A DNA stretch of 64,000 bases from Aquificaceae bacterium (GCA_037925075.1 JAXSNR010000001.1:96001-160000), one strand, 5' to 3'; positions 23,106 to 54,818 are shown, counted from the stretch's first letter. The notes: generated by a model not told the origin, from the letters alone. Numbers and translations: made by a program.

Positions 23106-23133
23106 CTTAACACCTCCTTAACTTTGATGAAGT

Positions 23134-23176
23134 AGAATATGACACCTCTCTGGAAATCTGCTATGACCTTTATCAA
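23134..23176 (-). promoter_or_regulatory. putative class II CRP/FNR-family promoter of the iscU operon
   Basis: TTGAT-AAAG-GTCAT (23163-23176) centred about 42 bp upstream of the start implied by -10 TATTCT (23134-23139). Confidence 0.5.
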
Positions 23177-38438: not shown

Positions 38439-38439
38439 G

Positions 38440-39363
38440 TTAGTAGCCTACCGCTTTGGATTTTAGATAAACCGCTATGGAATTCAGCACGAGGGTGATA
38501 ACAAAGAGCATAAAGCCTGCGGCAAATATGGACAGATACTCAAAGGAGCCAAAGGGCAAGTCCCCAAGGGCTACCTGAACTATGTATCCCGTCACGGTCT
38601 GTATAGGTTCCAATGGGTTGGCGGTTATCTGAGGGTACATACCCGCAGCCACAGCCACCACCATAGTTTCTCCTATCGCCCTTGAAAAACCAAGAAGGTA
38701 TGCGGAAAGCACACCAGACTTTGCAGCAGGAAGAACTACAAAAAGAGCGGTTCTAAGCTTTGAAGCTCCCAAAGAATAGGATGCCTCCCTTAGGTACTGG
38801 GGAACTCCCTTAAAGGCGTCCTCTATCATGGAGGCGGTAAAGGGTAGTATCATTATACCTATGACTATGCCCGGAGAAAGGGCATTCATACCTTCCATGT
38901 ATATACCAAAGGGTGAAAAGAATTTTTGAAGGATGGGAGTAATAAAAAGAAGAGCAAAGTAGCCATAAACCACCGTAGGCACAGCCTCAAGAAAATCAAG
39001 CCAAGGTTTTACCGTTTCTCTGACCTTCCAACTGGCATACTCGCTAAGGTAAATAGCTATGATTATCCCAAGGGGTATAGAAACCAACATGGATATGAAG
39101 GCTATCATAAGGGTGCCATTTAATAGGGGCCATATGCCTATCTGCTTGTCATAAAAGGTAGGGGTCCATTGGGTTTCCGTGAAGAACCTTATGAGAGATG
39201 TGGGAAAGCCACCCCCATCGGGGTGGGTGAAGAATCTTATGGTATCTATAAGCAAAACCCATACTATGGCAAAGGTGACAAAGATGGACACAGCCCCCAT
39301 TAGCATTAGGAATACATAAAGGGCTGTGTCTATAAACTTTTTAACACCAAGAGAGAGGGTCAT
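38440..39363 (-). CDS. pstC: phosphate ABC transporter permease
   Basis: VPTVVYGYF, REASYSLGA, RAIGETMVV. Confidence 0.95.
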   Translation of the reverse strand: MTLSLGVKKFIDTALYVFLMLMGAVSIFVTFAIVWVLLIDTIRFFTHPDGGGFPTSLIRFFTETQWTPTFYDKQIGIWPLLNGTLMIAFISMLVSIPLGIIIAIYLSEYASWKVRETVKPWLDFLEAVPTVVYGYFALLFITPILQKFFSPFGIYMEGMNALSPGIVIGIMILPFTASMIEDAFKGVPQYLREASYSLGASKLRTALFVVLPAAKSGVLSAYLLGFSRAIGETMVVAVAAGMYPQITANPLEPIQTVTGYIVQVALGDLPFGSFEYLSIFAAGFMLFVITLVLNSIAVYLKSKAVGY

Positions 39364-40364
39364 TGCTTGGCTTCCCTCTTAAGGAGTTCTTCTATGGTGA
39401 GACCAACTTCTGGCTCACCACCAAAAACTGTACCGAGCACTCTTTTCTTGAACCTCTCTTCTGTAAGCTTGTAGGCCTTGTCTGGCAGAGCTATGTAGCC
39501 CACCTGTTTGGCTATCTTGCCTGCGTTTTTGAGATAAAACTCTACAAACTCCTTAAGCTCAGGCCTTTCTTCCAACCTTTTGGCGTTTACGTATATGAAA
39601 AGTGGTCTAGAAAGAGGCTGATATGTGCCGTTCTGTACAGTTTGGTAAGAAGGTGCCACGCACTGGCCGGTCTTAGGGTTCTTTATCTGCACAGCCTTTA
39701 TCTTGCCTTTGTTCTCTTCCACGTATGCAAGTCCAAAGTAGCAAAGGGCTCCCTTTTCCCTTTGGGCAAACTGTACAAGCACGTTATCGTCTTCAGAGGC
39801 AAGGTAGTCTCCCCTGGAAGCTTTTGACTTTCCTGTTACTGCCTCTGTAAAGTAGTCAAAGGTTCCAGAGTCAGAACCGGGACCGCAAAGCTTTATCTCT
39901 ACCTTGGGCCAGTTAGGATCAAGGTCAGACCACATAAACTTCTTGCCTTGAGATTCTGGCTTCCAGATCTCTCTAAGCTGTTCTACGGTCATGCAGGTGG
40001 CCCAGTTGTTTCTGGGATTTACCACAACGGAAAGTCCGTCATAAGCGACAGGAAGCTCAATGTACTGGATACCGTTTTTCCTGCACTCCTCCATCTCCTT
40101 TGCCAGTATGGGCCTTGAAGCGTCGGATATGTCGGTTTCGCCCCTGCAGAACTTCTTAAAGCCACCACCAGTTCCGGAGATACCCACCGTGACCTTTACC
40201 GCACTCTTTTTTGCCTTTTGGAACTCCTCCGCCACACCCTCTGTGATTGGGTAAACGGTGGAAGAGCCGTCAATCTTGATTACCTGCTGTGCCTTTGCAG
40301 GCACGGACATGAGAGTCAAAGCTCCCACAGAAAGGACCGCGGTCTTGAGCATCCTTTTTCTCAT
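39360..40364 (-). CDS. pstS: phosphate-binding protein PstS (SphX-like)
   Basis: [37 protein letters not shown]. Confidence 0.95.
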
Positions 40365-40393: not shown

Positions 40394-40426
40394 AGTTTAC
40401 AGGTCAATTGTTAAGATTTCGTTAAG
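40394..40426 (-). promoter_or_regulatory. Pho-box-type promoter of pstSCAB
   Basis: CTTAAC-gaaat-CTTAAC, 10 bp, TAAACT. Confidence 0.8.
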
Positions 40427-40706
40427 ATACTCCGCGATAGGACTTTGCCCTTAGTGCAATTTCCTAACCGTTCAAGAGTTTTTGAATGATTGGCATAAAG
40501 GTTTATGGGAGTTATGACTACCAAATTTCTAAAGGCATACATGCTAAAGTCAATAATGCCACAGCCCCCATTATTATCGCTTCCGCCAAGGCATGTGGAA
40601 CAACATGCACCTTACCTATAATACTCTCTTTCACTAACGCCAAGCCTCTTGACCTTATAACTTTAAAATACTAAATTAATCCAATAAAGCACCGGGGGAG
40701 TTAAAA

Positions 40707-41648
40707 ATGAAGTTGAAAAACTTCTTTCTATTTCTAATTTTAGCCACCATGCTTTTGAATTTAGCACCCTCTTATGCACAGCAAGATGTACCTGGAAGCA
40801 AAGACCATCCAATCATTTCAAGATATCCTGGTTCTTATATATATCAATACGACCAGAAAGAGTTTGATGAATTTGAGATTCTTTTGAGTTCCACAAAAAT
40901 GTATCAAGGTGAGGATTATGTAAAGCGGGCAAAAAGAGAAAGGATTGAGGGAAAGGTCACAAGGATTGGATATCAAGCACCTAAAAATAGAAGTGTACTT
41001 GAGGTTTTTAAGAACTATGAAGAGGCAATCAAAAGGGCAAATTTTGATATACTTTATTCCGCAAGTGGAAAGGACCTCTCTATTAATGATTTTCTCAATC
41101 GTTATTTTACATTCCGTCCCGGCTGGAGTGAAGGTAAAAGTTTTTACTTATCTGCAAAAGATAGAACAGGAAATGTAATAATTTCAGTATGTGTGTTGCC
41201 CGGGTGGGATGGCCCAGTTGTACTTTTAGGAATTGTTGAAAAAAAGAGAATGGAAACGGGACTTATCACAGCTAAGGATATATACGAAAGAATAAAAAGT
41301 GAGGGGAAAGTGGCAATATATGGAATATACTTTGATTTTAACAAGGCGGATATAAAACCTGAATCAAAACCAACCATTGAGGAGATAGCAAAGTTTTTAA
41401 AAGAGCATCTTGAGATAAAGCTATACGTTGCAGGACATACGGATAATATAGGGAAGCTTGAATACAATATGGAACTTTCTAAGAGAAGGGCTGAGGCGGT
41501 GGTTAAGGAACTGACAGAAAAGTACGGTATAGCGAAGGATAGATTAAAACCCTTTGGGGTTGGACCTCTTGCACCAGTTTCAACAAACAAAACAGAGGAA
41601 GGAAGAGCAAAAAATAGAAGAGTTGAACTTGTGGAGGCAGGAGAATGA
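40707..41648 (+). CDS. OmpA-family peptidoglycan-binding protein with DUF4892-like N-domain
   Basis: Signal peptide, DVPGSKDHP.ISRYPGS, GIYFDF, GHTD, LSKRRAEAV, NRRVE. Confidence 0.9.
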   Translation: MKLKNFFLFLILATMLLNLAPSYAQQDVPGSKDHPIISRYPGSYIYQYDQKEFDEFEILLSSTKMYQGEDYVKRAKRERIEGKVTRIGYQAPKNRSVLEVFKNYEEAIKRANFDILYSASGKDLSINDFLNRYFTFRPGWSEGKSFYLSAKDRTGNVIISVCVLPGWDGPVVLLGIVEKKRMETGLITAKDIYERIKSEGKVAIYGIYFDFNKADIKPESKPTIEEIAKFLKEHLEIKLYVAGHTDNIGKLEYNMELSKRRAEAVVKELTEKYGIAKDRLKPFGVGPLAPVSTNKTEEGRAKNRRVELVEAGE

Positions 41649-43150
41649 AAAGGTGGATGTTGATTATCTTATTTATACTTTTAATTCCTCTTTCAACCTA
41701 TGCCTTTGAGCTTATTCCTATAGCCCAGTTTAGAGGGGTTAGAGCTATTATTTTGAAAGAGGGTGTTGGTTATTACTATGAAAAAACAAGACCACCTACA
41801 GAAGATGAAGTGAAGAAGAGGCTTGAATGGTTTGAGCAAGAATGGGAAAAATTGAAGGAAAAAGAGCCAGAGTTTGAAAAGGCACTTTCAGAAGGGGAAA
41901 AAAAGTTTAAAGAAGAGCTATCAAAGAGAAAACCACCTACATTTCTTAGGGACTTTTTCATGTCCGTTTTTCCACTGTTTAGACTTATAGCAAAAGAAGG
42001 TATGAAAATGGCAGAACCACTTGCCAAGAATTATTTTACAAAAGCACCAGTTGTGGTTGAGGCAGGGTTTGTGATTAAAAGGTTTGATGGCTCTTCTTAC
42101 AATTTAAAAATAGATTTTCATGAAGAGGAATGGAAGAGAATGCCCTCCGAAGGAATTTATCCTATTTCCTCCTCAGATGGAAGGTATTTGGCTTTAATGA
42201 CTGAGAGCGATTTTGGAAGGATAAGGGTTTTTAGAATAGAAAAAGAAAAGCTTGAACCCATTTTTGAGGTAGTTGGCTCAACACCCTTTGCCTTTTCTCC
42301 AAATGGAGAATACTTTTCCTATGCATCACCAAACAGATCACACATGCTTGTAGTAGACAAAGAAGGTAATCCTATAAGAAATATCCCTATAAGCTATAAA
42401 ATAGCAGGAAAAAAGGAAGATATAGGACCTATCAGAATAGCTCTTAGTGAAAGCTATCTTGGAATTGTGAGCTGGATTGGGATAAAACGTGTTGACCTAA
42501 AAAGTGGTGAAGAAAAAGAAGTTCGCCTTAGGGGTGGAAAATCCATTGTGTTTAATAGAACTGGAGACAGAATATATGCAAACAGTGTTGGCGGTGAAGT
42601 GTTTATCTATGACCTAAAAAGCTTAAACCTTATAAAAAAGTTGGACCCTTTCTATCTTAGAAAACGTGGGGTTTATATACAATACATAGCTTCCATTTCA
42701 CCTGAGGAGAGATTTATAGCGGTATTGTATGATCCCTCAAGCTATGATGATAAAGCGCCTCTTGAAACAAGCACCCTTTTAATTTATGACTTAGAAAGTG
42801 ATAGAGTGATAAAAAGGGTTGAGAATTTAGAAAGTATAACTGGTGGTTTTGGAGGTGTCTTTTTACCAGTTTCTTTTACAGAGGATTGGAGTTATGTATT
42901 GCTATCAAGAAAAGGAAACGTGGTTGAGCTTTATAAAATTAAAGGGGATTATGTAAAATCCGGAAAAAAGTTTTGTCAAAGTGATTCCGATTGTGTCTGT
43001 GGAATTGATAAAGAAACAGGAGAGTGTGCCTTTGGGAATAAGGAATTTATTGATACTTCTAAACAATGTCCAGATTTTTGCACTGGTATTCATGGAGGAT
43101 TCCGGATAAGATGTGTTTATAACCTTTGCAGACCAGTGCTTATTAAATAA
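41645..43150 (+). CDS. secreted beta-propeller-like protein with C-terminal 8-Cys domain
   Basis: Signal peptide; SSDGRYLA / FSPNGEY / ISPEERFIA repeats; terminal Cys-rich module. Confidence 0.7.
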   Translation: MKRWMLIILFILLIPLSTYAFELIPIAQFRGVRAIILKEGVGYYYEKTRPPTEDEVKKRLEWFEQEWEKLKEKEPEFEKALSEGEKKFKEELSKRKPPTFLRDFFMSVFPLFRLIAKEGMKMAEPLAKNYFTKAPVVVEAGFVIKRFDGSSYNLKIDFHEEEWKRMPSEGIYPISSSDGRYLALMTESDFGRIRVFRIEKEKLEPIFEVVGSTPFAFSPNGEYFSYASPNRSHMLVVDKEGNPIRNIPISYKIAGKKEDIGPIRIALSESYLGIVSWIGIKRVDLKSGEEKEVRLRGGKSIVFNRTGDRIYANSVGGEVFIYDLKSLNLIKKLDPFYLRKRGVYIQYIASISPEERFIAVLYDPSSYDDKAPLETSTLLIYDLESDRVIKRVENLESITGGFGGVFLPVSFTEDWSYVLLSRKGNVVELYKIKGDYVKSGKKFCQSDSDCVCGIDKETGECAFGNKEFIDTSKQCPDFCTGIHGGFRIRCVYNLCRPVLIK

Positions 43151-43167
43151 ATAAAGGGGAGTTGAAG

Positions 43168-43473
43168 ATGGAAGAGAAGAAGGTAAATCCTATAGCGGTT
43201 CTGTGTTATGTGGGGATCCTTGTTTTGATCCCTCTTTTAGTGGAAAAGGAAGACGAATTTGTAAGGTTTCATGTAAGACAGGGATTAGTCCTGTTCATTT
43301 GTGAGGTGGCTACCATGCTAATTGGTTGGTTTCCTATAATCGGTTGGTTAATAAGCTTTATAGGTTTCTTCATTTGGATAATCCTTAGCCTTATTGGGAT
43401 TATAAATGTACTAACTGGCAAGACCAAACCATTGCCTTTAATTGGAGGGTACGCCCAAAAGTTTAAAATTTAA
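43168..43473 (+). CDS. DUF4870-like small membrane protein
   Basis: [19 protein letters not shown]; start could be TTG at 43162. Confidence 0.8.
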
Positions 43474-43477
43474 ATTC

Positions 43478-45010
43478 ATGCGTGAGGTAATCTTTGAAAA
43501 GGGCATAAGGCACACCGCCCACGGGCTAAACTTCTATATGACCTACTTTGACGATGTGGCAAAGGTTCTACCAAGAGAAGCCTACTGCTTTATTGTGGGT
43601 GGGTGGGTAAGGGATAGGATTTTGGGTGAGCCTGTGGGCTATCACATAGATGTGGACCTTTTGGTGACCTGCGACCCAAGAGAGGTGGCAAAAAGGCTTG
43701 CGGAAAGGATAGGGGGCTCTTACTTTGAGTTTGAAAAGAAGGGGCTTTTTATAAAAAGACCCACAATAGCAACAGTGGTCCTAAGGCTTGGTCCTTACAA
43801 ATACCGCTTTGACTTTGCCCAGATAAAGGGAAGAGACTTAGAAAAGGCTTTGGTGGAAGACCTACTTTCAAGGGATTTTACCGCCAACGCCATGGCGGTA
43901 AGCATAGATGACGTGCTTAGCATAGGTGCAAAGCAAACCTTGATATACGACCCAGCACACGGAGTGGAGGACTTGGAGCAGGGGCTTTTGAGACCCGTAT
44001 CTTTGAAAAACCTTGAGGAAGACCCTGTGAGAATACTCAGGGGCTTTCGCCTTGCGGTGGAAAAAAGGCTTGAGCTTACAGAAGACTTTTATGAGTTTGT
44101 AAGGGAAAAGGGGAGCCTTATAAGGAAGGCTCCACCTGAAAGGATTACCCTTGAGCTTTTTAAGGTCTTGAGACAGCCAGAAGGCTATAAGGTTCTAAAA
44201 AAGTTATACCAGTATGGGCTTTTACAGGTGCTTTTCCCAGACACCGCCCGATGGAAGGAGATAAAAGACCAGGGAGAGCATCACATCTACCCTTTAGAGG
44301 AGCATGTTTTTAAGGTCTTGGAAGCTCTTGAGAAGGTAATCCAAGAAAGGGACAGATACCTACCTGCGGAACTTCTGGAAAACTTTGGTAAGACGGAAGT
44401 GCACGGTGAATTCTCCGATGTGGAGCTTTTGAAACTTTCCGCACTCTTTCACGATATAGCCAAACCTCACACCTTTGAGATAAGGGAAAACAAGATAACC
44501 TTTTACAACCACGATAAGCTCGGTGCTGAACTGGTAAGAGGTTATGGGAAGGCTTACAAGTGGGGTGAGACCGCCACGGAGTTTATAGCAAAGCTTGTAA
44601 GGGAACACCTAAGACCCTTTTATCTTAGAGAGTCCCTCTTCAAAGGACAGCTTACAGACAGGGGTAGGGCAAACTTTTGGAGGGAATGCGGAGATATAGC
44701 ACCTTATCTTTTCTTGCATGCCATGGCGGATGCCATAGGTAGCGGTGATGAGGAGGTGGAGATAAAAAGACTTCTTGAGACCATCCATGATCTGATAAGC
44801 TTCAAAAGGGAAAAACTTTCAAAGGTGCCTATGAAGGCTTTACTTGATGGGAAGGAGATAATGCAAGCTCTTGGCTTAAATCAGGGTCCTATTGTGGGAA
44901 GGATAAAAAAAGCATTAGAAGAAGCCCAGCTTGAAGGCAAGGTAAAAACCAAGGAAGAAGCCCTTGAGTTTATCAAATCTTACTACGAAAGCCTGAAAGA
45001 ACAAGCATAG
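43478..45010 (+). CDS. class II tRNA nucleotidyltransferase, CC-adding enzyme type, with HD domain
   Basis: VGGWVRD, DVD, RDFTANA, DPVRILR, HDIAKP; closely resembles the ~510-aa Aquifex CC-adding enzyme (from memory). Confidence 0.88.
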
Positions 45011-45653
45011 CCCTGTGTATAAGAAGGGGATCATATAGACCTAACTCTTCAAAAAGCCACCCGTCGCCACCTGTGATAAGGAGCTTTAGGTCTTTTTTGT
45101 ATATATCACTCCAAGTTTTTAAACAGCCCATCAAAAAGTGTAAAGCTTGATTTATAAAGCCACCAAGGATGGCACCTTTTGTATCTTTACCTATCTGTAC
45201 AGAAAGCTTTTGAAGTTTGAGCTTTGGTATAAGTTCAGCTTTTTGCGACAGGCATTCAAGCCCAGCACCCACACCAAGGGTTATAAAACCACCTTGAAAC
45301 ACACCATTCACCACAAGGTCTATAACCGTCGCTGTGCCAAAGCTTGCCACCACCACATCCTTGTAGTAGAGCTTAACCGCACCGTAAAGGTTCAAAAGCC
45401 TGTCTATGCCCACTTTTTCCTTTCCTTCAAAGGCGGTCTCAATAGGCACATCTTCAGCCCTTATAAACCTTGCATGGGGGTATTTTTCTTTTATAAGGTG
45501 GTTGGCGGAAGGTTTAACAGAGGACACAAGCACAAGGTCTGCCTTCAAAAGGGGGATCTCATAGTGTTTGAACTTGCCAATGTACTCCAAAGAGCCATCA
45601 AAAAGGCATACATCTACCGATGTGTTGCCCACATCAAGGGTGATAACTTTCAC
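44973..45653 (-). CDS. coaX: type III pantothenate kinase
   Basis: [30 protein letters not shown] start at 45653 preferred. Confidence 0.9.
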
Positions 45654-46533
45654 ACCTTGCACCCTCTTTGGAAGCATCAAGCACCATGTACTTTGAGCTT
45701 ATGCCACATGTTTTGAAGGCTTCCACCATGGCTAAACCCACATCCTCCGCACCATGAGGGCAAAGGCTTGCCACAGAAGGTCCCGCACCACTTAGGAACA
45801 CCGCAACCGCACCCTTTTGGTAGGCACCTTCCACCACCTTCCAAAAGCCCGGCACAAGCTCAGCCCTGTAAGGTTGGTGAAGCCTGTCCTTTACCGCCTC
45901 CTTCAAAAGGTCAAACCTCCTTGAAAGCAAAGCACCCACAAAAAGGGCAGACCTCTGAAGGTTATAAACCGCATCCTTGAGGGAAACCTCTTTTTTTAGC
46001 ACCTCCCTTGCCTTTTGGGTGGAAAGCTCAAAGTCTGGCACGCATACCACCACCCTAAGCTCCTCAGGAAAGTCAAGCCTAAGAAACTTCACATTTTCTT
46101 TAGAGCCTGCACAGATAACAAAGCCACCAAGAAGGGCGGGAAGAAGGTTATCGGGATGAGGTTCAAACTCAAAGGCAATCCTTAGCTTATCCTCAAGGCT
46201 CAAGCTCATGCCATAAAGAGCCTCAAAGGCAAGCAAACCACCCACTATGGCGGTCGCAGAAGAGCCAAGACCTCTACCTGTGGGCACTCTGTTTATCTGT
46301 CTCAGACTTATGGGCTTTTCTGGAACCTTCAAAAGCTCACAGGCTCTTTTATAGACTTTTATGAGAAGGTTCTCTTCGTTTTGTGGAAGGTGGGCACCCT
46401 CACCTTCTATCTCTACTCTATAAGTGCTGGAAAACTCCACAAAAAAGTCGTTATAAAGACTTAGGGCAAGCCCAAAGGCATCAAAGCCAGAACCAAAGTT
46501 GCTGGTGCTTGCAGGAACAGATATGCGAAACAT
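45634..46533 (-). CDS. thrB: homoserine kinase
   Basis: PASTSNFGSGFD, PTGRGLGSSA, HPDN, LSGAGPS. Confidence 0.96.
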   Translation of the reverse strand: MFRISVPASTSNFGSGFDAFGLALSLYNDFFVEFSSTYRVEIEGEGAHLPQNEENLLIKVYKRACELLKVPEKPISLRQINRVPTGRGLGSSATAIVGGLLAFEALYGMSLSLEDKLRIAFEFEPHPDNLLPALLGGFVICAGSKENVKFLRLDFPEELRVVVCVPDFELSTQKAREVLKKEVSLKDAVYNLQRSALFVGALLSRRFDLLKEAVKDRLHQPYRAELVPGFWKVVEGAYQKGAVAVFLSGAGPSVASLCPHGAEDVGLAMVEAFKTCGISSKYMVLDASKEGARCESYHP

Positions 46534-46548
46534 GGGAAAAAATTATAG

Positions 46549-46581
46549 CTTAATCAAATCTTAACAATTCACCTATACAAT
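46549..46581 (+). promoter_or_regulatory. Pho-box-type promoter of the P-type ATPase operon
   Basis: CTTAAT-caaat-CTTAAC, 10 bp, TACAAT; flanks nearly identical to the pstS promoter. Confidence 0.7.
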
Positions 46582-46590
46582 TCATAAGGG

Positions 46591-46965
46591 ATGATAGAGC
46601 ATGTGTCCTTAAGAAAAGGTGAGGCAAGGCTCTACTTTTCAAGCATTGCGGAAAAGGAGTTTTTTCTTCATGGTATGAAAGGGATGGAGGGGGTTGTGGG
46701 GGTGGAACACAAGGAGAACATAAGAACAGTCCTTGTAAGGTTTAGGGAGGGAAGCTTTGCTCACTACCTTATTGAAAACTTAAAGGCTAAGAGGGAAAGT
46801 CAGAAGCTGGAGAAGGAGGACTTACACTTCTACCTTCAGCCTTTTCTCAAACATCCGGCGGTTAAGTTGGGCTTTAGTATGGCTCTCCTTGGGTGGAATG
46901 TGGGGCTTATATCCTTTGCAATTTGCAGTATGTTTCTTATGCCATATTTAAAGAACAAACTTTAG
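46591..46965 (+). CDS. hypothetical protein, HMA-like N-domain plus C-terminal hydrophobic segment
   Basis: G.ARL...GVVGV....RTVLV pattern similar to the N-domain of the downstream ATPase. Confidence 0.6.
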   Translation: MIEHVSLRKGEARLYFSSIAEKEFFLHGMKGMEGVVGVEHKENIRTVLVRFREGSFAHYLIENLKAKRESQKLEKEDLHFYLQPFLKHPAVKLGFSMALLGWNVGLISFAICSMFLMPYLKNKL

Positions 46966-46975
46966 GAGGTAAGGT

Positions 46976-47290
46976 ATGCTTAACATCAGCGTTCCCAGTA
47001 CAATAGGTGGATGTTTGTCCACCAATATGCTTTTGTATGGCTTTGGTGCCTTTGCAGGGTTTGTGGTGCTTAGCAGGCTTATGAGGGATGCAAGGCCCCT
47101 TCTTGTTTCTGCTACAAAGGAGGTAATTGCCTTTCAGCAGTGGCTTGCGGGAAACCTTGAAGAAGGTAAGGAGTTCTGGGAGGATGTGGTCTCTGAAGCC
47201 AAGCACCAATACAGGCTTGAGGTGGAAAAGAAGTTGGATATCCTACAAAAACAGCAAGAAATCCTACAGAAAATAAAAGAAAGACTTTGA
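46976..47290 (+). CDS. small membrane-anchored coiled-coil protein (DUF5132/DUF1490-like ATPase partner)
   Basis: GGAGG SD; Gly-rich hydrophobic anchor, ARPLLV.A.K, E.WEDVVSEAK. Confidence 0.65.
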   Translation: MLNISVPSTIGGCLSTNMLLYGFGAFAGFVVLSRLMRDARPLLVSATKEVIAFQQWLAGNLEEGKEFWEDVVSEAKHQYRLEVEKKLDILQKQQEILQKIKERL

Positions 47291-47301
47291 GGAGGTAAAA
47301 G

Positions 47302-47505
47302 ATGAGCAACATAACTTCTTTTTTAGGAAAGGCTCTTTGCTCTGGACCCTTTAGCTTTGCCCTTGGCTTTGGCCTTGGAATGGTTGCCTTTTACATGCTC
47401 GACAGAGTCAAAGAAAAAAGAAGGCTCGAAGAAACCCAGAAGGAAATAGAAGCCCTGGTCAAAGCCCTTGAGCTAAAGCTCCAGCAGGAGAGCAAGACAG
47501 AATGA
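47302..47505 (+). CDS. small membrane-anchored protein
   Basis: GGAGG SD; FALGFGLG anchor plus charged helix; stop overlaps the ATPase start. Confidence 0.65.
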   Translation: MSNITSFLGKALCSGPFSFALGFGLGMVAFYMLDRVKEKRRLEETQKEIEALVKALELKLQQESKTE

Positions 47506-49586
47506 CCTACAAGGTGGAAAAACTCTTCCCCGGAAGGCTAAGGCTTGTCTCTTACCTTTTCCAGCATCTACACCATCCCGATGAAACCTTAAAGTCCTAC
47601 TTTTCAAGGTTTGGAGGTGTAAGAAGAATAAGCTACTCAAAGGCTTCCGGAAGGCTCACCCTTGAATACGACCCAAAGAGCTTTGACCTTATAGAATTTC
47701 TCAACCACCTTGAAAGCATACCAAGGGATGTTTTCCTTGAAGACCTATCAAGGGAAAAACCAGCCACAAAAAGGGAAGAAGGTAAGGCCTCTCGTTGGCT
47801 TATGCTTAGCACCCTTGGCTTCCTGCCATACATAATGAGAAGCACCCTATCCACGCCTTTCCTTGCGGGGATAACATTGCTTCTTGCCAAGCCCATATTT
47901 GACAAGGCTCTCAGTTCTATTGGAAGGAAAAAACTTGACGTTCATTTTCTTGACTCATCAGCCATAGTTCTGGCAAGCCTTACGGGAAACCCACTATCCG
48001 CACACACTATGGTCTTCCTGCTTGCCCTTGGTGATTATCTTTCAGAGAGGGTTGAAAGGAAAGCCTACGAGAAGATAGAAAAGCTTTTCTCTTACAAAGA
48101 GGACACCGCATGGCTACTTGTTGGCAACGGTCAGGCGGTAAAGGTAAAAGCCATAGACCTAAAAAGGGGTGACCTGATAGCGGTCTATGCGGGAGAGAAG
48201 ATACCGGCGGACGGCTTGGTAGAAGAGGGAGACGCCCTTGTAAATCAAGCATCTTTGACTGGAGAGTCAAACCCTGTTCACAAAAAGGTGGGTGATAAGG
48301 TCTTTGCGGGTACCTTTGTGGAGGATGGAAAGCTTTATGTGAAGGTGGAAGAAGTGGGCGAAGAAACGGTGGTTGCAAAGATAGCAAAAATTGTGGAAGA
48401 GAGTATAAAGGAGCCCATAAGCGTGCAGAAGATGGCAGAAGAAAACGCCAACAGGCTTGTAATGCCCACCATCAACCTTGGCTTGATATCTTATCTACTT
48501 AGCAATCAGGTAAGCAGGCTCACCTCCACCCTTATCATAGACTACCATACGGGAATTCACCTTACAACGCCTCTGACGGTGCTCTCCAGTGTGGCACAGG
48601 CTTCTACCTACGGCATACTCATAAAAAGCGGTGGAAAGCTGGAGGCTCTTTCAAGAGTTGATACCTTTGTAATGGACAAGACGGGCACTTTGACTTTGGG
48701 GTATCCTGCGGTTGAAGATGTAGTAGGTCTGGAAGTGCCAGACGAAGAAGCCCTTTTATACGCCGCTTCCCTTGAGCAAAGAATAACCCATCCCGTAGCA
48801 AGGGCAATAGTAAAGATGGCAGAGGATAAAGATATAGAGCTTTTGCCAAGAGAGAACTCCCAGTATCATATAGGGCTTGGTATAGAAGGGGAGTTAAGCG
48901 GTACAAAATTCATGCTTGGAAGCACTCGCTTTATGCAAAAAAAGAGGATAAGGATAAGTCAAGAGGTAAGAGACCTTGTGGAGAAGTTCCATTCGGAAGC
49001 AAAATCTGTCCTTTACCTTGTTAGAGAAAAGAGAATAGTGGGGCTTCTTACCTTTAGAGACCCACTGAGGCAAGAGGCAAAGGATGTGGTAGCAGAGCTA
49101 AAAAGGAGAGGAAAAAAGGTAGTGCTTTGCACAGGCGACAACGAAGGCGTAGCCAAGTACATGGCAAAGGAGTTGGGCATAGAAGAGTTTTACGCAAGGG
49201 TTTTCCCTGAGGAAAAGGCAAAGGTGATAGAAAATCTTAAAAGGCAGGGTAGGGTGGTTGCCTTTGTGGGGGATGGTGTAAACGATTCACCAGCTCTCTC
49301 TCGTGCGGATGTGGGCATATCTCTAAGAAGTGGAACAGACATAGCCATAGAGGTGGCGGATGTGGTCATAGGAGATAGCCTTTGGCATCTTATCGATGTG
49401 GTAGATATAGCAGAGCATACTATAAAAAGGCTAAGAAGCATATACAGGCTTAATGCTTTAGCCAACACGGTGGGGCTTGTGGGCTCCGCATTGGGTCTTT
49501 TTGGACCCTCTGTATCAACCTTGATAAACAACGGCACCACAGTGCTTTTGGGTTTATATTCAATAAAAAAAACAAAAAGGAGGTGA
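47502..49586 (+). CDS. P1B-type ATPase with non-canonical transmembrane site (DYHTG)
   Basis: TGES, DKTGT, THP, TGD, GDGVND; PGRLRL HMA_2-like N-domain; no CPC. Confidence 0.9.
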   Translation: MTYKVEKLFPGRLRLVSYLFQHLHHPDETLKSYFSRFGGVRRISYSKASGRLTLEYDPKSFDLIEFLNHLESIPRDVFLEDLSREKPATKREEGKASRWLMLSTLGFLPYIMRSTLSTPFLAGITLLLAKPIFDKALSSIGRKKLDVHFLDSSAIVLASLTGNPLSAHTMVFLLALGDYLSERVERKAYEKIEKLFSYKEDTAWLLVGNGQAVKVKAIDLKRGDLIAVYAGEKIPADGLVEEGDALVNQASLTGESNPVHKKVGDKVFAGTFVEDGKLYVKVEEVGEETVVAKIAKIVEESIKEPISVQKMAEENANRLVMPTINLGLISYLLSNQVSRLTSTLIIDYHTGIHLTTPLTVLSSVAQASTYGILIKSGGKLEALSRVDTFVMDKTGTLTLGYPAVEDVVGLEVPDEEALLYAASLEQRITHPVARAIVKMAEDKDIELLPRENSQYHIGLGIEGELSGTKFMLGSTRFMQKKRIRISQEVRDLVEKFHSEAKSVLYLVREKRIVGLLTFRDPLRQEAKDVVAELKRRGKKVVLCTGDNEGVAKYMAKELGIEEFYARVFPEEKAKVIENLKRQGRVVAFVGDGVNDSPALSRADVGISLRSGTDIAIEVADVVIGDSLWHLIDVVDIAEHTIKRLRSIYRLNALANTVGLVGSALGLFGPSVSTLINNGTTVLLGLYSIKKTKRR

Positions 49587-49592
49587 AAAGCA

Positions 49593-49862
49593 ATGGAAGA
49601 AAAAAAGGACCTTGCTCAGGAGCTTGAAAAAATCAAGGCGGAGCTTGAGGAGCTTAAGAAAAAGATGGGAGTAGCGGAAGAGGAAAAGAGTCTAAAGGAC
49701 CTTCCTACGGAAGCCCTCTCAAAGGTTATGGAGCTCAGTAAAGAAATAGTAAAGACCACCGCGGAGATAGGCGAGAAGGCTCTAAGGGTTGTAAGGTATT
49801 CCGTTGAGGGTGCGGTAGAAGGCGCAAAGAAGGCACTAAAAGAAGAGGAGAAGAAAGAGTAA
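49593..49862 (+). CDS. hypothetical amphipathic helical (phasin-like) protein
   Basis: GGAGG SD; E/K/A-rich helices. Confidence 0.65.
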   Translation: MEEKKDLAQELEKIKAELEELKKKMGVAEEEKSLKDLPTEALSKVMELSKEIVKTTAEIGEKALRVVRYSVEGAVEGAKKALKEEEKKE

Positions 49863-49864
49863 GG

Positions 49865-50122
49865 ATGAACTTCATAAGGACAAGAAGCGGAAGGTATCTT
49901 AATACTCTCCATATTATATCCCTTTCGGTGGAGGAAGCTAAGATAGAGATAGAGGGGAAAAAGAGGCTGGTTTATAAGGTGGTCGCCTACATGAGCCAGC
50001 CTCTTCTTCCTGCGGTTTTGGGTATTTACTCCACAGAAGAAAGAGCCTTTGAAGTTTTGGAAGATATTATACAAAGGCTTTCAAGGGACGAAAGGGTCAT
50101 ACATGTTGAAAGCGAGTACTGA
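49865..50122 (+). CDS. hypothetical protein
   Basis: 85-aa ORF tightly coupled in the operon. Confidence 0.6.
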   Translation: MNFIRTRSGRYLNTLHIISLSVEEAKIEIEGKKRLVYKVVAYMSQPLLPAVLGIYSTEERAFEVLEDIIQRLSRDERVIHVESEY

Positions 50123-50441
50123 AGACTACGAAAGAGAACTAAAGCTACTTGCCCATCATATACAGGAAGCACATAAGGAGCTTTTTAAAAGCATACAAGA
50201 GAACATTCTTCTTGAGGTAGAGCTTCCCGAGGGAGGGGGAGTTAATTTCCTAATAAGCTCCAGTGGCATAAATCTCACCTCCGATGTATCACAAGCCAAA
50301 CACGTGGTAAATGTAAGCTACAGAGATTTAATGAGGCTTGTGGAAAATCCCTCAAAGATAGTTTCTTATGTATTAAAGGGTAGGGTCAGAATAAGGGGAG
50401 ATTACAAAACCATACTCTCCACGCTTCAGAAACTCCTCTAA
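50103..50441 (+). CDS. SCP2 (sterol carrier protein 2)-like lipid-binding protein
   Basis: C-terminal V.VSYRDLMRL...P...VLKGRVRIRGD..L..LQKLL resembles the SCP2 signature; ATG 50103 preferred. Confidence 0.65.
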   Translation: MLKASTEDYERELKLLAHHIQEAHKELFKSIQENILLEVELPEGGGVNFLISSSGINLTSDVSQAKHVVNVSYRDLMRLVENPSKIVSYVLKGRVRIRGDYKTILSTLQKLL

Positions 50442-50644
50442 AAGAGCCTGTTTAGAGCTTTTGTTATAAGGTTTTCCAACAAACCACCCACTACGAAGGA
50501 TTCTATAAGTATAGTCCTGTCCTTTTCGGTGAGAAAAGTGTCCCTTTCGCGTTTTCTGAACTTTTCACCCTTTTTAAGAAGTCTTCTATAACAGTCCTTC
50601 TCCCTCTCTATCTCCTGAATTAGAAGCTCTATCCTTTCCTTCAT
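50438..50644 (-). CDS. 68-aa hypothetical protein with its own Pho-type promoter
   Basis: ORF starts 8 nt after the -10 of the 50653-50685 promoter. Confidence 0.6.
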   Translation of the reverse strand: MKERIELLIQEIEREKDCYRRLLKKGEKFRKRERDTFLTEKDRTILIESFVVGGLLENLITKALNRLF

Positions 50645-50652
50645 GCTTGGGT

Positions 50653-50685
50653 AGTTTAACTGAAAACTGTTAAGATTTCGTTAAG
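50653..50685 (-). promoter_or_regulatory. Pho-box-type promoter
   Basis: CTTAAC-gaaat-CTTAAC (identical to the pstS box), 10 bp, TAAACT. Confidence 0.75.
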
Positions 50686-50723
50686 GATTTCCCCTTACCC
50701 CTTTGTTTCCGAAAAGCACAAGA

Positions 50724-51833
50724 CTATACCTTAGCAAGGAAGCCACGATAGACCTCAAAGAGCCTGTCAAAGGTGGATTCCCAAGAAAACCTGTTGCGTA
50801 TAAAGGAGCTGACTGTTTCCCTGTATGATAAGCTTACCGCATTGCATGCATGGACTATGGCATCGTAGAAGACTTCCAGCGTGGGCTCTTTAACCAAAAA
50901 CTCCTTGAAGGGTTGTGTTTCAAGCTCCATATCAAAGGCAACCAGTAGACAACCGCACGCTTGAGCCTCAAGAAAGGCAAGTCCGTAGGTTTCGTAAAGG
51001 GAAGTGCTAACAAAGACATCACAACTCGCGTATATTTTTGCAAGGTCTTCTTTCTTAGCAATGTATCCAAGGTATGTAAGATTTGGAAGTTTTTGAGAGA
51101 GCCTTTCTACCTTTTTTCTGGCTGGACCATCGCCCACCACGACAAGATGAAATAATGTGGGGTCAAGATGTTGGAAAACTTCAAAGAGAAGGTCCACATT
51201 CTTATCGGGGGAAAGCCTACCCGCATAGAGGAGCTTAAATCTTCCCTCTTTTACTCCTATTATTTTATTGAAGTATGGGTCTCTCATAGAGGGGTTAAAA
51301 ACGTTTGTATCAACCCCTAAGTTTACAGTAAGCACATTTTCTATTCCAGACCTTTTTAGAAAGTCTTCCTGCGTCTTGGAGGGTGTTATTATGAGGTCCG
51401 CCTGGGATAGCTTTTTTCCTATGGTGTAGTCAATTAGAGCCTTCTTTAGTCTCTCTGGAGCAGGTATAAGTGAAAGGTCCGCCCTTATGTCGGAATGATA
51501 AAAAACGCTTAACATATACCTATCTGACTTGAGATGGTTTATGGGTTGGTATGTGCCACCTAGTTCTACCACATCTGGGTCTTCTACTTTCAGTATTTCC
51601 TTTATTTCCGAAAAGGAGGAAAAGAACCTGTAGCCACCGGTAAGGGGCAAGGGAAAAGAGGGAAGCTCATAAACCTTTGTGGAGTTTATGTAGTAGGTCC
51701 TCCTTTTTCTGCCCGGCACTATAAGAACATGCTCTATACCTCTCTGTTGCACATACTTGGTCTTTTCCAGTAAATACCTTCTTATGCCACCGCTTTTGCT
51801 ATGAAAGTAAGGGGTTATATCAGCTAACTTCAT
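50724..51833 (-). CDS. GT4 glycosyltransferase
   Basis: DITPYFHSKSGGIRRYL, LGVD, YAGRLSPDKN, ETYGLAFLEAQACG; ATG 51833 preferred. Confidence 0.9.
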   Translation of the reverse strand: MKLADITPYFHSKSGGIRRYLLEKTKYVQQRGIEHVLIVPGRKRRTYYINSTKVYELPSFPLPLTGGYRFFSSFSEIKEILKVEDPDVVELGGTYQPINHLKSDRYMLSVFYHSDIRADLSLIPAPERLKKALIDYTIGKKLSQADLIITPSKTQEDFLKRSGIENVLTVNLGVDTNVFNPSMRDPYFNKIIGVKEGRFKLLYAGRLSPDKNVDLLFEVFQHLDPTLFHLVVVGDGPARKKVERLSQKLPNLTYLGYIAKKEDLAKIYASCDVFVSTSLYETYGLAFLEAQACGCLLVAFDMELETQPFKEFLVKEPTLEVFYDAIVHACNAVSLSYRETVSSFIRNRFSWESTFDRLFEVYRGFLAKV

Positions 51834-54066
51834 GGACAAGCCTTCCAAGACCAGCTATGGCTAACATGTAGTCCATGTATGTTTTTCTCATATCAAGGCT
51901 TTTGGCGTAATACAGTGCTTCCTGAGACATGCTCCTTCTGAGGCTTTCATTGGAAAGAAGAAGGGACAACCTTTCTACAAAGTCTTCTTGTCTTGTGGCT
52001 ATAAAGCCATTAACACCCTCCTTTAAATGCTCATGGGAGGCACCCTTTGAACTTACCACCACAGGAAGACCGCATGCCATAGCCTCCAAAACCACCTGCC
52101 CATAGGTTTCAGTCTCTGAGGGGAAGAGAAACACATCTGAGCTTGCGTAGGCAGTAGCCAAATATTCTCCCACCATATATCCCACAAAATGCACATTTTT
52201 TGGTTTTTTAACTTCAAGCTCTCTTCTGTATGGTCCGTCTCCCACCACCACAAAAACATCCTCCGGAAAACACCTTGCGGTATAAAGGAAGGTATCCAAA
52301 CCCTTTTCCTTAGATACCCTGCCAACGTAGAGGATCACTCTTTGATGTCTTCTTATACCAAGCTTTTCAGTCCATAAATCTTCGCGTCTTTTTTGCGGTG
52401 AAAAGAGTTCCGTATCAACACCACGCTTGAAGGTGCTTACCTTGCCATACTCAAGCCCATTACTTATAAAAAGCTTTCTGTAATGTTCTGATGGGACAAA
52501 AAGCCTATCGGAGAGATTGCCCAGAAGGACAAAGGCTTTCCAAAGTAGTTCTTCCATCTGCGAGTCTCCCGTGTAGGTTCTTGCGTAGGCTGGTATGTCC
52601 GTATGAAAGGCAAAGGTGATCCTAAGATTTAGAACTTTGCCCGCTAAAAATCCCATAAGTCCAAGGGGTCCGGGTGTGGCTATATGAACTTGGGTAAAAC
52701 CCTCCTTTTCAATAAGGTCCAACAGCTCCAAAAAGTTAGGAACTCCCATCCTTAACTCTTCATAAAAGGGCGTGGCCAATTCAAAAAGAGGTTCTAAGTT
52801 TATAAGGTTTTCCTCTTCCTTTAACTGTGAGCTTGCAACAATCACTGTAAAGGGTAGGTCTTCCTCAAGGGCTATCTGTCTTATGAGCTTAGCACTTCTT
52901 GCAACTCCGTTTATGTGGTGGTAGGTATCCGTAAGGTAGGCAACCTTTGGAGGCTTTCCGTTGCTTATACCAAACTCCTTTCCAAGGACCCTTATCTTCT
53001 GCTCTTCTCTTTTCTGGGCGTACTTTAAAAAGGCGGGGAAGCCATGAGCCACGAGGGACAGGCACAGCTCCCCAATGGTCTGCGGTGAGGGGCTTTTCAA
53101 AAGCCTTCCTATGGCAAAGGAAGGCAGTTTTTTTGCTATTTCCCTCAAAAGGTCTGACCTTTCCGCTTTTATACCAAGAAGATTTCTCAAAAGCATACCC
53201 ACCAAAGGGTTGTCCGATTGCATGAAAATATAATCAGTTATCGGTCTTACCTCAGAAGGTATCAGGTTTTTGCTTTTTAGAAAGTCATAGCCCACTCTGC
53301 AAACCATATTGAGAAGCCTTTTATCTCCAAGGTCTTCTGTTCCCAAATGCGTTCTGCCTTCCCAAAGCCCTCGCAAAAACTCCTCTTTGCTAAGGGCCCC
53401 CTCAACTCCTGTCCAAGTCCTCCCCACATCCATGCCCCCGTGGTCATCAGAGCCTGCGGTAAAGGTGATCCTCTCCCTTATCCTCTGGGGTTCCATCTTG
53501 TGCCTTTCCGCAAGGGCGTTTATTCTGTCCCACCCATCGTAATGGCGGGCTATGGTCTCTTCTATGTATCTAACACCATCCCCCCTTGTGCCGTTTATCA
53601 CCTCCCAGTTGTCAAAGAGAAGCGCCAGTTTTTCCACGAGATTCCTGTCTATATTTGTCCCCTGCACCGAATAAAGAGGGTGTGCAAGGGAATGGGCTAT
53701 CCTGTGGGACTTTAGATATCTCACAAAATCGTATAAATTTTCCCTGAGCTTGAGAAGGTCCTGATGTTGGGCTTCTGTGATGCCATAGACCAACACATGC
53801 ACCTTAGCCTTTTCCTCTGGGAATTCCACCGTGTATTCACAGCTGATAAAGACCTCCGGCAGGTGTGCTATCTCAAGAACACCGCTTATAGTGTTGTGGT
53901 CTGTTATGGTAATATAGCTCATCCCTCTTTCTTTGAGCCTTATGTATATCTCCATGGGCTCTGTAAAGCTCTCTGGGCATCCTACTAACTTGCTAAACCA
54001 ACCCCCCGGCAGGTTGGAAGCCTTTGAATGAAGGTGTAGGTCCGCCTTTGCAAAAAAGTTCCCCAT
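51820..54066 (-). CDS. PHP-family phosphoesterase fused to GT4 glycosyltransferase
   Basis: DLHLHS, ITDHN, E, H, AHP, GSDDH (PHP); TDTY...NGVA, ATPGPLG, RGVD, VGRVSKEK, ETYGQVVLEAMACG (GT4). Confidence 0.9.
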   Translation of the reverse strand: MGNFFAKADLHLHSKASNLPGGWFSKLVGCPESFTEPMEIYIRLKERGMSYITITDHNTISGVLEIAHLPEVFISCEYTVEFPEEKAKVHVLVYGITEAQHQDLLKLRENLYDFVRYLKSHRIAHSLAHPLYSVQGTNIDRNLVEKLALLFDNWEVINGTRGDGVRYIEETIARHYDGWDRINALAERHKMEPQRIRERITFTAGSDDHGGMDVGRTWTGVEGALSKEEFLRGLWEGRTHLGTEDLGDKRLLNMVCRVGYDFLKSKNLIPSEVRPITDYIFMQSDNPLVGMLLRNLLGIKAERSDLLREIAKKLPSFAIGRLLKSPSPQTIGELCLSLVAHGFPAFLKYAQKREEQKIRVLGKEFGISNGKPPKVAYLTDTYHHINGVARSAKLIRQIALEEDLPFTVIVASSQLKEEENLINLEPLFELATPFYEELRMGVPNFLELLDLIEKEGFTQVHIATPGPLGLMGFLAGKVLNLRITFAFHTDIPAYARTYTGDSQMEELLWKAFVLLGNLSDRLFVPSEHYRKLFISNGLEYGKVSTFKRGVDTELFSPQKRREDLWTEKLGIRRHQRVILYVGRVSKEKGLDTFLYTARCFPEDVFVVVGDGPYRRELEVKKPKNVHFVGYMVGEYLATAYASSDVFLFPSETETYGQVVLEAMACGLPVVVSSKGASHEHLKEGVNGFIATRQEDFVERLSLLLSNESLRRSMSQEALYYAKSLDMRKTYMDYMLAIAGLGRLVHEVS

Positions 54067-54739
54067 AGCTGGCTAACCTCCTTTCCTTTTTTATCTTGCC
54101 AAGTATTTCTTTCCAAAGCTCTATCTTTCTTTCGTCTCTAAAGTCCGCCATATGAAGGGCAAGTCTGAGGACCTGATGACCTTTGTAGAGTTTTTCCATG
54201 TTGGGAACCACCATAAGGCTTAGCCAAGATAGCAGATTCCTGTTGCTGAAGGTAAGCGTGGGAGAGTCTATGACCCTGTTGTGGTGTAGGTCCTTTATGT
54301 GCCACCTGTAAGCTACAGCCCTAAAACCAAAGGAGTAAAGCACATCCTCAAGGTAAGGATTCCCTATCCATGCGGGTGGCACAAAAAACTCTGTATTTAG
54401 ACCAAAATATTCCATAAGCTCCAAGCCAGATTGAACCCTTTTATAGGTCTCCGTAAGGTCAAGCCCCCCAAACTCACCCTCCCCATCTGTCCAAAGCAAG
54501 TCCTGAAGCCTCTTCTTACCCTTATGGGTGTACCCATGAAGCACCAGCTCCACCTTGAGGCTTTTTAGAAGGTTCAAAAAGCTCAGGTCCCCTCCAAGTG
54601 GTGCGTACTCCCAAAAGTAGGGCACTACAAGAAGGGAAAATCTATCCAATCCCACCTCCTCCAAGAGCTCAAGGGCTTTATAAAACTCAACCCTGTAATA
54701 AGGGCTCACATCGTGAAGTTCCACTATGGCAAGCTTCAT
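53993..54739 (-). CDS. polysaccharide deacetylase-like protein (DUF2334/CE4)
   Basis: LHDVSP, LLVVP, LHGYTH, FVPPAW, RLALH. Confidence 0.85.
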   Translation of the reverse strand: MKLAIVELHDVSPYYRVEFYKALELLEEVGLDRFSLLVVPYFWEYAPLGGDLSFLNLLKSLKVELVLHGYTHKGKKRLQDLLWTDGEGEFGGLDLTETYKRVQSGLELMEYFGLNTEFFVPPAWIGNPYLEDVLYSFGFRAVAYRWHIKDLHHNRVIDSPTLTFSNRNLLSWLSLMVVPNMEKLYKGHQVLRLALHMADFRDERKIELWKEILGKIKKERRLASYGELFCKGGPTPSFKGFQPAGGLV

Positions 54740-54746
54740 AGAAAAA

Positions 54747-54801
54747 AGAGTAGTATGGGAAAGTTAAGATTTCTTTAAGGTTTGGTTAAGATTTGGTTAA
54801 G
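54747..54801 (-). promoter_or_regulatory. four-unit Pho-box-type promoter of the deacetylase/GT operon
   Basis: CTTAAC/CTTAAC/CTTAAA/CTTAAC at exact 11-bp period (54796, 54785, 54774, 54763), 10 bp, TACTCT. Confidence 0.8.
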
Positions 54802-54803
54802 AT

Positions 54804-54818
54804 GGGGGCAAAGCCCCC
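54804..54818 (-). terminator. GC hairpin after thiC
   Basis: GGGGGC-AAA-GCCCCC right after the thiC stop; weak U tract. Confidence 0.4.

Follow-up and report, generated by a model that had tools for sequence, protein, structure and literature searches.

Repeat-bearing promoters of the window

The stretch of DNA analysed here, hereafter the window, comprises 64,000 nt from an Aquificaceae bacterium (GCA_037925075.1, JAXSNR010000001.1:96001-160000) and corresponds to C1:96001-160000 of its 1.6-Mb source genome, which is 99.95% complete and labelled G000. C1 and C2 denote contigs of G000, and G- and L-numbers are labels of the genomes and loci compared. Four promoters of the window carry CTTAAC-type repeats. 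They precede the phosphate-uptake genes pstSCAB, an operon for a P1B-type ATPase, a gene for a protein of 68 amino acids (aa), and an operon that starts with a DUF2334 deacetylase gene, and an earlier note on this DNA had proposed that they define a phosphate-starvation (Pho) regulon. The coordinates and strands given there for the four sites are all exact, and at every site the last repeat is followed, after 10 nt, by a TAnnnT -10 element, as had been described. Two units among the four sites differ from CTTAAC by one base.

The pstS promoter (40394-40426, minus strand) consists of CTTAACGAAATCTTAAC with two 11-bp units, 10 nt and TAAACT, and is followed by a leader with a Shine-Dalgarno sequence. 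It precedes pstSCAB (36694-40364, minus strand; pstS 39360-40364, pstC 38440-39363, pstA 37506-38438, pstB 36694-37512), where PstS is identified by a TIGR02136 match above cut-off. The promoter of the 68-aa gene (50653-50685, minus strand) indeed has the same 17-mer, CTTAACGAAATCTTAAC, and the same TAAACT element after 10 nt; the ATG follows 8 nt further on with no Shine-Dalgarno sequence. The ATPase-operon promoter (46549-46581, plus strand) has two 11-bp units in CTTAATCAAATCTTAAC, 10 nt and TACAAT. Its -10 element ends 9 nt before the ATG without a Shine-Dalgarno sequence, and the transcript is predicted to be leaderless or nearly so. The DUF2334-operon promoter (54747-54801, minus strand) has the four units reported for it (CTTAAC/CTTAAC/CTTAAA/CTTAAC, period 11), 10 nt and TACTCT, with 7 nt to an ATG that lacks a Shine-Dalgarno sequence, and is likewise predicted to be leaderless. 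A spacing of 10 bp to the -10 element places the box on the -35 position, and no sigma-70 -35 consensus was called at three of the window promoters within the scanned region.

Between the thiC stop codon and the DUF2334 boxes lies a G+C hairpin (54804-54818, minus strand; -12.7 kcal/mol, no U tract), which possibly insulates the operon from thiC read-through. Many members of the genus have similar hairpins. Divergent from pstS, an OmpA/DUF4892 protein and a 501-aa protein without a Pfam family are encoded at 40707-43150, with no box on that strand.

Extension to eight promoters genome-wide

The pattern CTTAA-N6-CTTAAC has six matches in the window against 0.13 expected, and six were reached in none of 100 shuffles. 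Genome-wide, YTTAAnnnAATCTTAAC has 10 matches, compared with zero in each of five simulated fifth-order Markov genomes. TAnnnT follows eight of these ten 17-mers at a gap of 10, and no other gap between 5 and 23 is seen after more than two of them. Pairs of repeats show the same preference, with 12 pairs at period 11 and one to six at the other periods from 7 to 18. The motif is rare at unrelated loci: under the loose rule that was also used for the orthologues below, 13 of the 1497 long open reading frames (ORFs) of G000 fire.

A first matrix was built from the four window sites only, with the -10 columns included. Its genome scan gave 11 matches above threshold, five of them being the four sites' own units; the other six precede DUF302, phoX, an arsC-like gene, a glycine-zipper lipoprotein gene, phoU and one unassigned ORF. 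The earlier note had expected hits at phoU, phoA and ppk. Of these expectations phoU is borne out, with phoX recovered beside it (PF05787, E 4e-146; phoU by TIGR02135 above cut-off), and ppk is not: a ppk match is impossible, as neither polyphosphate kinase 1 nor 2 (PPK1, PPK2) was found in the genome. The arsC-like gene matches TIGR02691 below cut-off, with Cys7/83/90 present.

A second matrix was derived from 108 sites in other genomes, which are partly orthologues and hence not independent. It places eight promoters of G000 at 28-42 bits, namely those of pstS, the 68-aa gene, the ATPase operon, phoX, phoU, the arsC-like gene, DUF2334 and DUF302; the next match has 18.4 bits and the simulated background reaches a maximum of 18.7. 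Four of the eight have a leader with a Shine-Dalgarno sequence. The other four are predicted to give leaderless mRNAs because the ATG lies 7-9 nt past the -10 element and no Shine-Dalgarno sequence is present.

Several weaker matches were set aside. C1:210935 (the glycine-zipper lipoprotein, 18.4 bits) and C2:134043 (16.8 bits) fall within the simulated background and were not counted, and C1:625148 has the 17-mer with no -10 element at gap 10. A fifth window match, overlooked in the earlier note, lies at 23106-23138 on the plus strand, with TAGAAT at gap 10. It runs antisense into an esterase-like gene, overlaps the iscU ribosome-binding site on the minus strand and scores 17.8 bits, below the background maximum; it was rejected as a member and is probably outside the regulon.

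Three of the additional loci deserve description. The arsC-like gene (locus C1:582799-586726, including the genes downstream) is boxed, predicted to be leaderless and encodes three catalytic-type Cys; two ORFs, a bcp peroxiredoxin gene and copA follow, and the box is kept in five relatives. This arrangement suggests that arsenate defence is wired to phosphate starvation. The DUF302 gene (C1:393916-394351) has a strong box that is kept in four relatives. At C1:684935-687327, phoU overlaps a downstream gene for a 574-aa HAMP histidine kinase, not the PhoR orthologue, which may be co-induced with it.

Conservation of the box in relatives

Conservation upstream of orthologues, which the reading as a regulon predicts, was found at 81 of the 82 loci examined: 29/29 for DUF2334, 27/28 for the 124-aa gene that heads the ATPase operon, and 25/25 for the 68-aa gene. 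Box and -10 element occur together at 28 of 29, 22 of 28 and 23 of 25 of these loci, respectively, and DUF2334 orthologues have box and -10 at 7 nt from the start in 23 of 29. Upstream DNA was read for the best-scoring orthologues, namely in 29 of the 50 other genomes that carry DUF2334, in 28 of 33 for the 124-aa gene and in 25 of 29 for the 68-aa gene; contig-edge and broken copies were left out. The repeats persist between diverged flanks, and in G030, G074 and G078 the 68-aa gene has relocated with its box retained. The exact pattern is present in all 24 genus genomes and in 46 of 90 family genomes; a reversed control gave one match in total.

Around further pattern matches in relatives, 40 regions avoiding the DUF2334, 124-aa and 68-aa genes were fetched and 42 sites were read. 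Twenty-four of them precede pstS (6), phoU (5), arsC (5), DUF302 (4), phoX (3) or a gene for a phosphate:H+ symporter-like protein (1), and TAnnnT stands at gap 10 in 30 of the 42. L134, L147, L153, L154 and L155 share a boxed gene whose product, a conserved signal-peptide protein of 75-80 aa, has a GTNHPALDTLLE motif, and further boxed genes are found in L133, L141, L149 and at L169:9414.

The probable regulator

Four OmpR-family genes are present in the genome. One of them (C2:654700-655371) has PhoB (TIGR02154) as its best model, and its orthologue occurs in 74 of 90 family genomes. In G010 this orthologue is boxed and followed by a PhoR-like kinase gene and then by boxed pstSCAB; the kinase has a clear G000 orthologue at C2:117002-117970 (E 2e-42; next match 3e-10). 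In G000 itself the PhoB-like gene lies, within C2:652793-656510, between genes for a carboxylase subunit and a YaeI-like metallophosphoesterase, as in several genera, with no box seen directly upstream. The core Pho targets pstSCAB, phoU and alkaline phosphatase (phoX) are all boxed. The pattern fits the available definition of a Pho box as 11-nt repeats (PMC4415409), and the box given for SphR in the accessible text of PMC1906773, CTTAACCT, resembles the unit found here.

On this evidence the CTTAAC repeat very probably marks a phosphate-starvation regulon of eight promoters under the PhoB-like regulator, for which the repeat is the likely binding site. The claim of the earlier note is thereby supported, with the recovery of phoX and phoU, the conservation of the box and its rarity elsewhere as the main supports. 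Several observations weigh on the other side. The PhoB-like regulator scores 234 bits, below the PhoB cut-off of 296, and its gene has no adjacent kinase here, with three other OmpR-family regulators in the genome. Boxes occur near the regulator orthologue in 3 of 13 loci read. The footprinted loci come mostly from one genus and from the best-scoring relatives, and are not independent, and 18 of the 42 sites read in relatives precede other or unassigned ORFs.

Two different accounts of the repeats were considered. That they are chance AT-rich repeats has a negligible probability: one match, at 23106, is accounted for by the overlapping ribosome-binding site, whereas a chance excess is ruled out by the window shuffles, the Markov genomes, the control with 1497 ORFs and the reversed control, and conservation between diverged flanks had already refuted this reading. 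Alternatively, the repeat might be bound by another of the four OmpR-family regulators, responding to metal or envelope stress, with pst, phoU and phoX merely among its targets. The targets include a P1B ATPase and an arsC-like gene that is followed by bcp and copA, which would agree with this. However, the other three regulators are each linked to a kinase and best match non-Pho models, and the box precedes pstS, phoU and phoX repeatedly in different genera, which makes this account very improbable.

By analogy with established PhoB biology, the phosphorylated regulator would bind the repeats head-to-tail in place of a -35 element and recruit sigma-70 polymerase. At low phosphate it would switch on uptake (pstSCAB), scavenging (phoX) and feedback (phoU) together with the DUF2334 operon, for which a role in glycolipid synthesis is proposed below, and the metal-pump cluster, and the product of the arsC-like gene would handle arsenate entering via Pst.

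The DUF2334 operon

The approximately 8 kb between the boxes had been described as otherwise unexplained membrane genes. This description does not hold: only part of the products are membrane proteins, and the genes form a lipid-remodelling-type operon and a ferrosome-like module with a satellite gene. The former comprises three genes on the minus strand. The DUF2334 deacetylase (53993-54739) is GpgD-like (NF053788, 100 bits, cut-off 280). The second product (51820-54066) is a 748-aa fusion of a PHP phosphoesterase domain with a GT4 glycosyltransferase domain, and the third (50724-51848) is a GT4 glycosyltransferase whose best match is GpgS-like (NF053787, 187 bits, cut-off 480).

The Pfam match to PHP is weak (E 0.0025) and a sequence search of the domain against the PDB gave only noise. 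The positions H11, H13, D56, H57, E77, H90, H129, D207 and H209 are 100% conserved, with 104-119 homologues having a residue per column. Together with the secondary structure of the model, they point to a PHP domain with a full set of putative metal ligands. The fusion protein is modelled confidently as one unit (pLDDT 91.5, pTM 0.86), and the structure matches listed cover the GT4 half only.

The operon adjoins olsB/olsA-like genes in the Hydrogenothermaceae loci L119 and L121, and the same pair lies downstream in L120; in G040 it stands behind a boxed phosphate symporter gene. No match to olsB was found in G000 by tblastn. Operons of a Pho-boxed phosphoesterase and a GT4 enzyme are described, in the accessible parts of PMC8528852 and PMC5193443, as swapping phospholipids for glycolipids.

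The pump cluster

The ATPase operon encodes seven proteins on the plus strand. The 124-aa protein (46591-46965) has a C-terminal hydrophobic GxxxG segment and a FezC-like architecture; its homologue in L113 has a faint HMA_2 match (PF19991, E=0.038, below cut-off). The 104-aa protein (46976-47290), with a single transmembrane segment, GxxxG and a coiled tail, resembles FezA and PacL in architecture; its Atlas match to DUF5132/DUF6110 at 0.88-0.89 is taken as a lead only. The 67-aa protein (47302-47505) also has a single transmembrane segment and GxxxG and is conserved in distant clusters. It is followed by the P1B-type ATPase (694 aa, 47502-49586), with N-terminal RLR, DYHTG in transmembrane segment 4 (TM4) and NNGTT in TM6. 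The last three genes encode an 89-aa helical protein (49593-49862) that is conserved in the cluster, an 85-aa soluble protein (49865-50122) with approximately 50% identity in other families, both without a Pfam family, and a protein with an SCP2 lipid-binding fold (PF02036, 50049-50441). Homologues of the latter have about 108 aa, and its true start is probably later than 50049.

The 68-aa basic, amphipathic protein is encoded on the opposite strand (50438-50644, minus) behind its own box. It had been called an orphan, a label that no longer fits: homologues occur in 30 of 90 family genomes, the gene is found together with the 124-aa gene in 28 genomes (either one only in 2 and 6, respectively, neither in 54), and homologues flank the distant clusters L113 and L119-L121. 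In G048 it has been lost together with the pump. By these patterns of co-occurrence the gene is a conserved satellite of the pump cluster. The protein has no Pfam family, no Atlas match and no informative fusion (one 122-aa match).

The pump cluster recurs in all nine distant loci found (L113-L121), seven of which have boxes by the same rule. In L114-L116 and L118 the genes immediately before it are pstSCAB-phoU, and in L117 it follows phoU; L114, L115 and L117 are near kin, as are L116 and L118, so that these cases amount to about two independent linkages. In G149 the gene order is box, 68-aa gene, phoU. Some clusters contain additional genes. A very glycine-rich peptide of approximately 50 aa precedes the cluster in L114 (L114:6920-7075), L115 and L117. 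A CDF cation-efflux gene is inserted in L114 and at the same place in L115. The Hydrogenothermaceae clusters (L116, L118-L121, L165-L167, L170) have an extra helical ORF of 150-168 aa without a family, located after the box and ahead of the HMA-like gene, and in G055 a boxed short Cys/His-rich ORF stands directly before the cluster.

The lineage of the ATPase was examined with a 151-sequence FastTree and a 30-sequence IQ-TREE phylogeny. The DYHT group (support 100/100) joins a large clade of cysteine-free pumps with DxGTG/NN motifs (P0243-P0388; 100/98), and together they form the sister group of FezB (99/98); CPC pumps branch outside. The DYHTG/NNGTT type is shared by about 100 of the 119 close homologues listed, and the sources include Aquificota, Thermodesulfobacteria and Deltaproteobacteria. 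A constrained clade of FezB and the DYHT group that excludes the DxGTG pumps is rejected (p-AU 0.0155, approximately unbiased test), the clade having been named after the first tree was seen and the motif columns kept in the alignment. In the available text of 10.1101/2020.01.10.902569, the defining features of FezB are D[YF]SCA and HNxxT, with RxR and GxxxG partners. Here RLR corresponds to the N-terminal RxR, and the 124-, 104- and 67-aa proteins have GxxxG within hydrophobic segments, with a faint HMA_2 match on one partner only. An assignment as FezB itself was rejected by the motifs DYHTG and NNGTT and by the p-AU value. The nearest characterised relative of the ATPase would nonetheless be FezB, unless the DxGTG group corresponds to FezH, the second ATPase of large fez clusters, which has a transmembrane metal-binding motif of its own. 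The ATPase model has a pLDDT of 84, and no FezB structure is among the PDB matches listed. The loss of the transmembrane cysteine in the alignment columns, which leaves Asp, His, Asn and Thr, hints at transport of a harder cation.

The iron-homeostasis context of fez clusters is not seen, the neighbours being pst and phoU. Near the ATPase promoter the best match to a Fur consensus covers 10 of 19 positions. Two Fur-family genes are present in the genome, so that some input from Fur is conceivable.

Functions proposed for the lipid operon and the pump cluster

The lipid operon is read, with moderate confidence and on the basis of its enzyme families, as a pathway for phosphorus-free (amino)glycolipids. 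The PHP domain would release a lipid backbone free of phosphate, sugars would be added by the two GT4 enzymes and an N-acetyl group would be removed by DUF2334, so that phospholipid phosphorus would be spared. Counting against this pathway, the GpgS and GpgD matches are far below cut-off and no flippase is encoded in the operon, two PF03706 (LPG_synthase_TM) flippase-like genes lying elsewhere in the genome. In addition, the GlcN-PG that the gpg enzymes of Pseudomonas aeruginosa make with a flippase (PMC12713373) keeps its phosphate. The same enzymes offer a different explanation, in which the product of the operon is a GlcN-PG-like phospholipid, comparable to that of Pseudomonas gpgSD, which alters membrane charge and spares no phosphorus. 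In favour of it, the best NCBIfam matches are GpgS and GpgD, and the two flippase-like genes are present elsewhere in the genome. However, both matches are under cut-off, the intact PHP phosphoesterase is fused with a further GT4, ornithine-lipid genes are among the operon neighbours, and phosphate starvation is not mentioned in the available part of the gpg paper (PMC12713373). Synthesis of such a phospholipid is thus considered unlikely, and the glycolipid pathway is preferred.

For the pump cluster, three functions were weighed, and all of them are tentative. The ATPase and its GxxxG partners may build a ferrosome-like membrane compartment into which a divalent cation is pumped and where it precipitates with phosphate. 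Such a metal-phosphate sink would buffer the phosphate surge through the induced Pst system, a job done by polyphosphate in PPK-bearing bacteria. It is possible, though short of probable, and is preferred by analogy because ferrosome content is reported as ferrous phosphate (10.64898/2026.06.16.732667, accessible part) and because Caulobacter needs polyphosphate on refeeding: there polyphosphate absorbs the phosphate driven in by Pst, and the surge is toxic without ppk1 (PMC13250506, accessible part). PPK1 and PPK2 had no match in G000, in which positive controls were detected. In the 138 Aquificota genomes with a completeness of 85% or more, the pump was found in 33, PPK1 in 19 and PPK2 in 4 (above cut-off), and 32 of the 33 pump genomes lack both kinases; five distant pump carriers also gave no PPK1 match, in genomes whose completeness was not established. 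A strict complementarity of pump and PPK was rejected as not supported (Fisher p 0.044, on non-independent kin). Against the sink stand the genome G149, which carries pump, PPK1 and PPK2, and the 87 of 105 pump-less genomes that also lack PPK1, a lineage-wide absence. The cluster is, moreover, dispensable in G048 (L169), where a deletion begins after codon 50 of the first gene and the box is retained, and in G034 (L168), where the pump gene is fragmented. The cluster contains no recognisable phosphate transporter, and TM4 and TM6 depart from the FezB signature. The more specific proposition, that a Pho-induced, cysteine-free pump with GxxxG partners mineralises phosphate as a non-polymer store or overflow valve in bacteria without polyphosphate kinase, is accordingly graded as doubtful. 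An effluxosome-like platform that exports or sequesters Fe, Mn or Zn left unchelated at low phosphate, without storing phosphate, is rather unlikely as well. P1B ATPases normally export metals, CPC/HN pumps of the CtpC type are the next branch out in the trees, and L114 and L115 have the CDF efflux gene within the cluster; in the available text of PMC13460109, Mycobacterium tuberculosis CtpC, which clusters with P1B-6, works with single-transmembrane PacL scaffolds at the plasma membrane. The ATPase is, however, nearer to FezB than to the CPC/HN group (100/99) and has no transmembrane cysteine, and the multi-gene layout with GxxxG and HMA-like proteins resembles fez clusters. It is still less likely that the pump supplies metal cofactors to exported phosphatases such as PhoX and PhoD. 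Phosphatases of these types require Fe and Ca, phoX carries the same box and in G032 the cluster has a PhoD-like gene next to it, but the usual neighbours in the nine distant loci are pstSCAB-phoU rather than a phosphatase (one phosphatase-like ORF lies near L120), and six accessory proteins including SCP2 are more than a simple delivery pump needs.

Comparison with known systems

Pho regulons as such are known; new here are the pump module and the fused lipid enzyme as members. In the literature searched, outside of which most subscription papers lie, no Pho box of Aquificae, no Pho-controlled fez-like cluster and no PHP-GT4 fusion was described. For a deep-branching lineage of hot springs, a Pho regulon is defined precisely enough to be tested, and three sets of uncharacterised proteins become linked to starvation for phosphate. 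Should the pump cluster build a compartment, a machinery of the ferrosome type would have passed from the control of iron to that of phosphate, and such a compartment, if real, would explain how bacteria without PPK withstand the surge of phosphate that follows starvation. Boxed leaderless promoters this short may also be useful as phosphate-responsive parts in the genetics of thermophiles.

The closest known box is that of Synechocystis SphR, which shares the 11-bp direct repeats (8 bp with a 3-bp linker) and the CTTAAC core. At least three units are described for SphR in the accessible text, whereas two are found here at six of the eight promoters and four at DUF2334. PhoB, PhoP and SphR regulons also have pstSCAB, phoU and alkaline phosphatase as targets and an OmpR-family regulator with a PhoR-like kinase. 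The present regulon differs by a conserved AAAT linker, unlinked regulator and kinase genes, the lack of ppk, four targets that are predicted to be leaderless, and the ferrosome-like cluster, the arsC-like gene and DUF302 among its targets.

Like fez clusters, the pump cluster is a multi-gene unit with a sister ATPase, an N-terminal RxR, small GxxxG membrane proteins and an HMA-like partner. It differs in carrying DYHTG/NNGTT in place of D[YF]SCA/HNxxT, in lacking a transmembrane cysteine, in its Pho box and in having pst/phoU rather than iron-homeostasis genes as neighbours; no Fur-like box was found, and SCP2, 85-aa and 68-aa genes are additional. With the M. tuberculosis effluxosome (CtpC/PacL1) it shares a P1B ATPase near P1B-6 and single-transmembrane partners with coiled tails. 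CtpC, as far as described in the accessible text, is a zinc exporter with CPC and HN motifs. Both motifs are absent from the present cluster, which comprises six accessory genes plus the 68-aa satellite.

The lipid operon shares a GT4 enzyme and a DUF2334-type deacetylase with gpgSDF of P. aeruginosa and hexSDF of Clostridioides difficile, from which it differs by the absence of an operon flippase, the extra PHP-GT4 protein, sub-cut-off scores and the Pho box. PlcP-Agt systems (P. aeruginosa PA3219/PA3218/PA0842; D. alaskensis Dde_3613), compared by description only and from the accessible text, likewise have a phosphoesterase and a GT4 enzyme behind a Pho box. Here a PHP phosphoesterase is fused to GT4 in place of a separate PlcP and a deacetylase is added, and the fusion, if it acts as proposed, would do with one protein what otherwise takes both PlcP and Agt.

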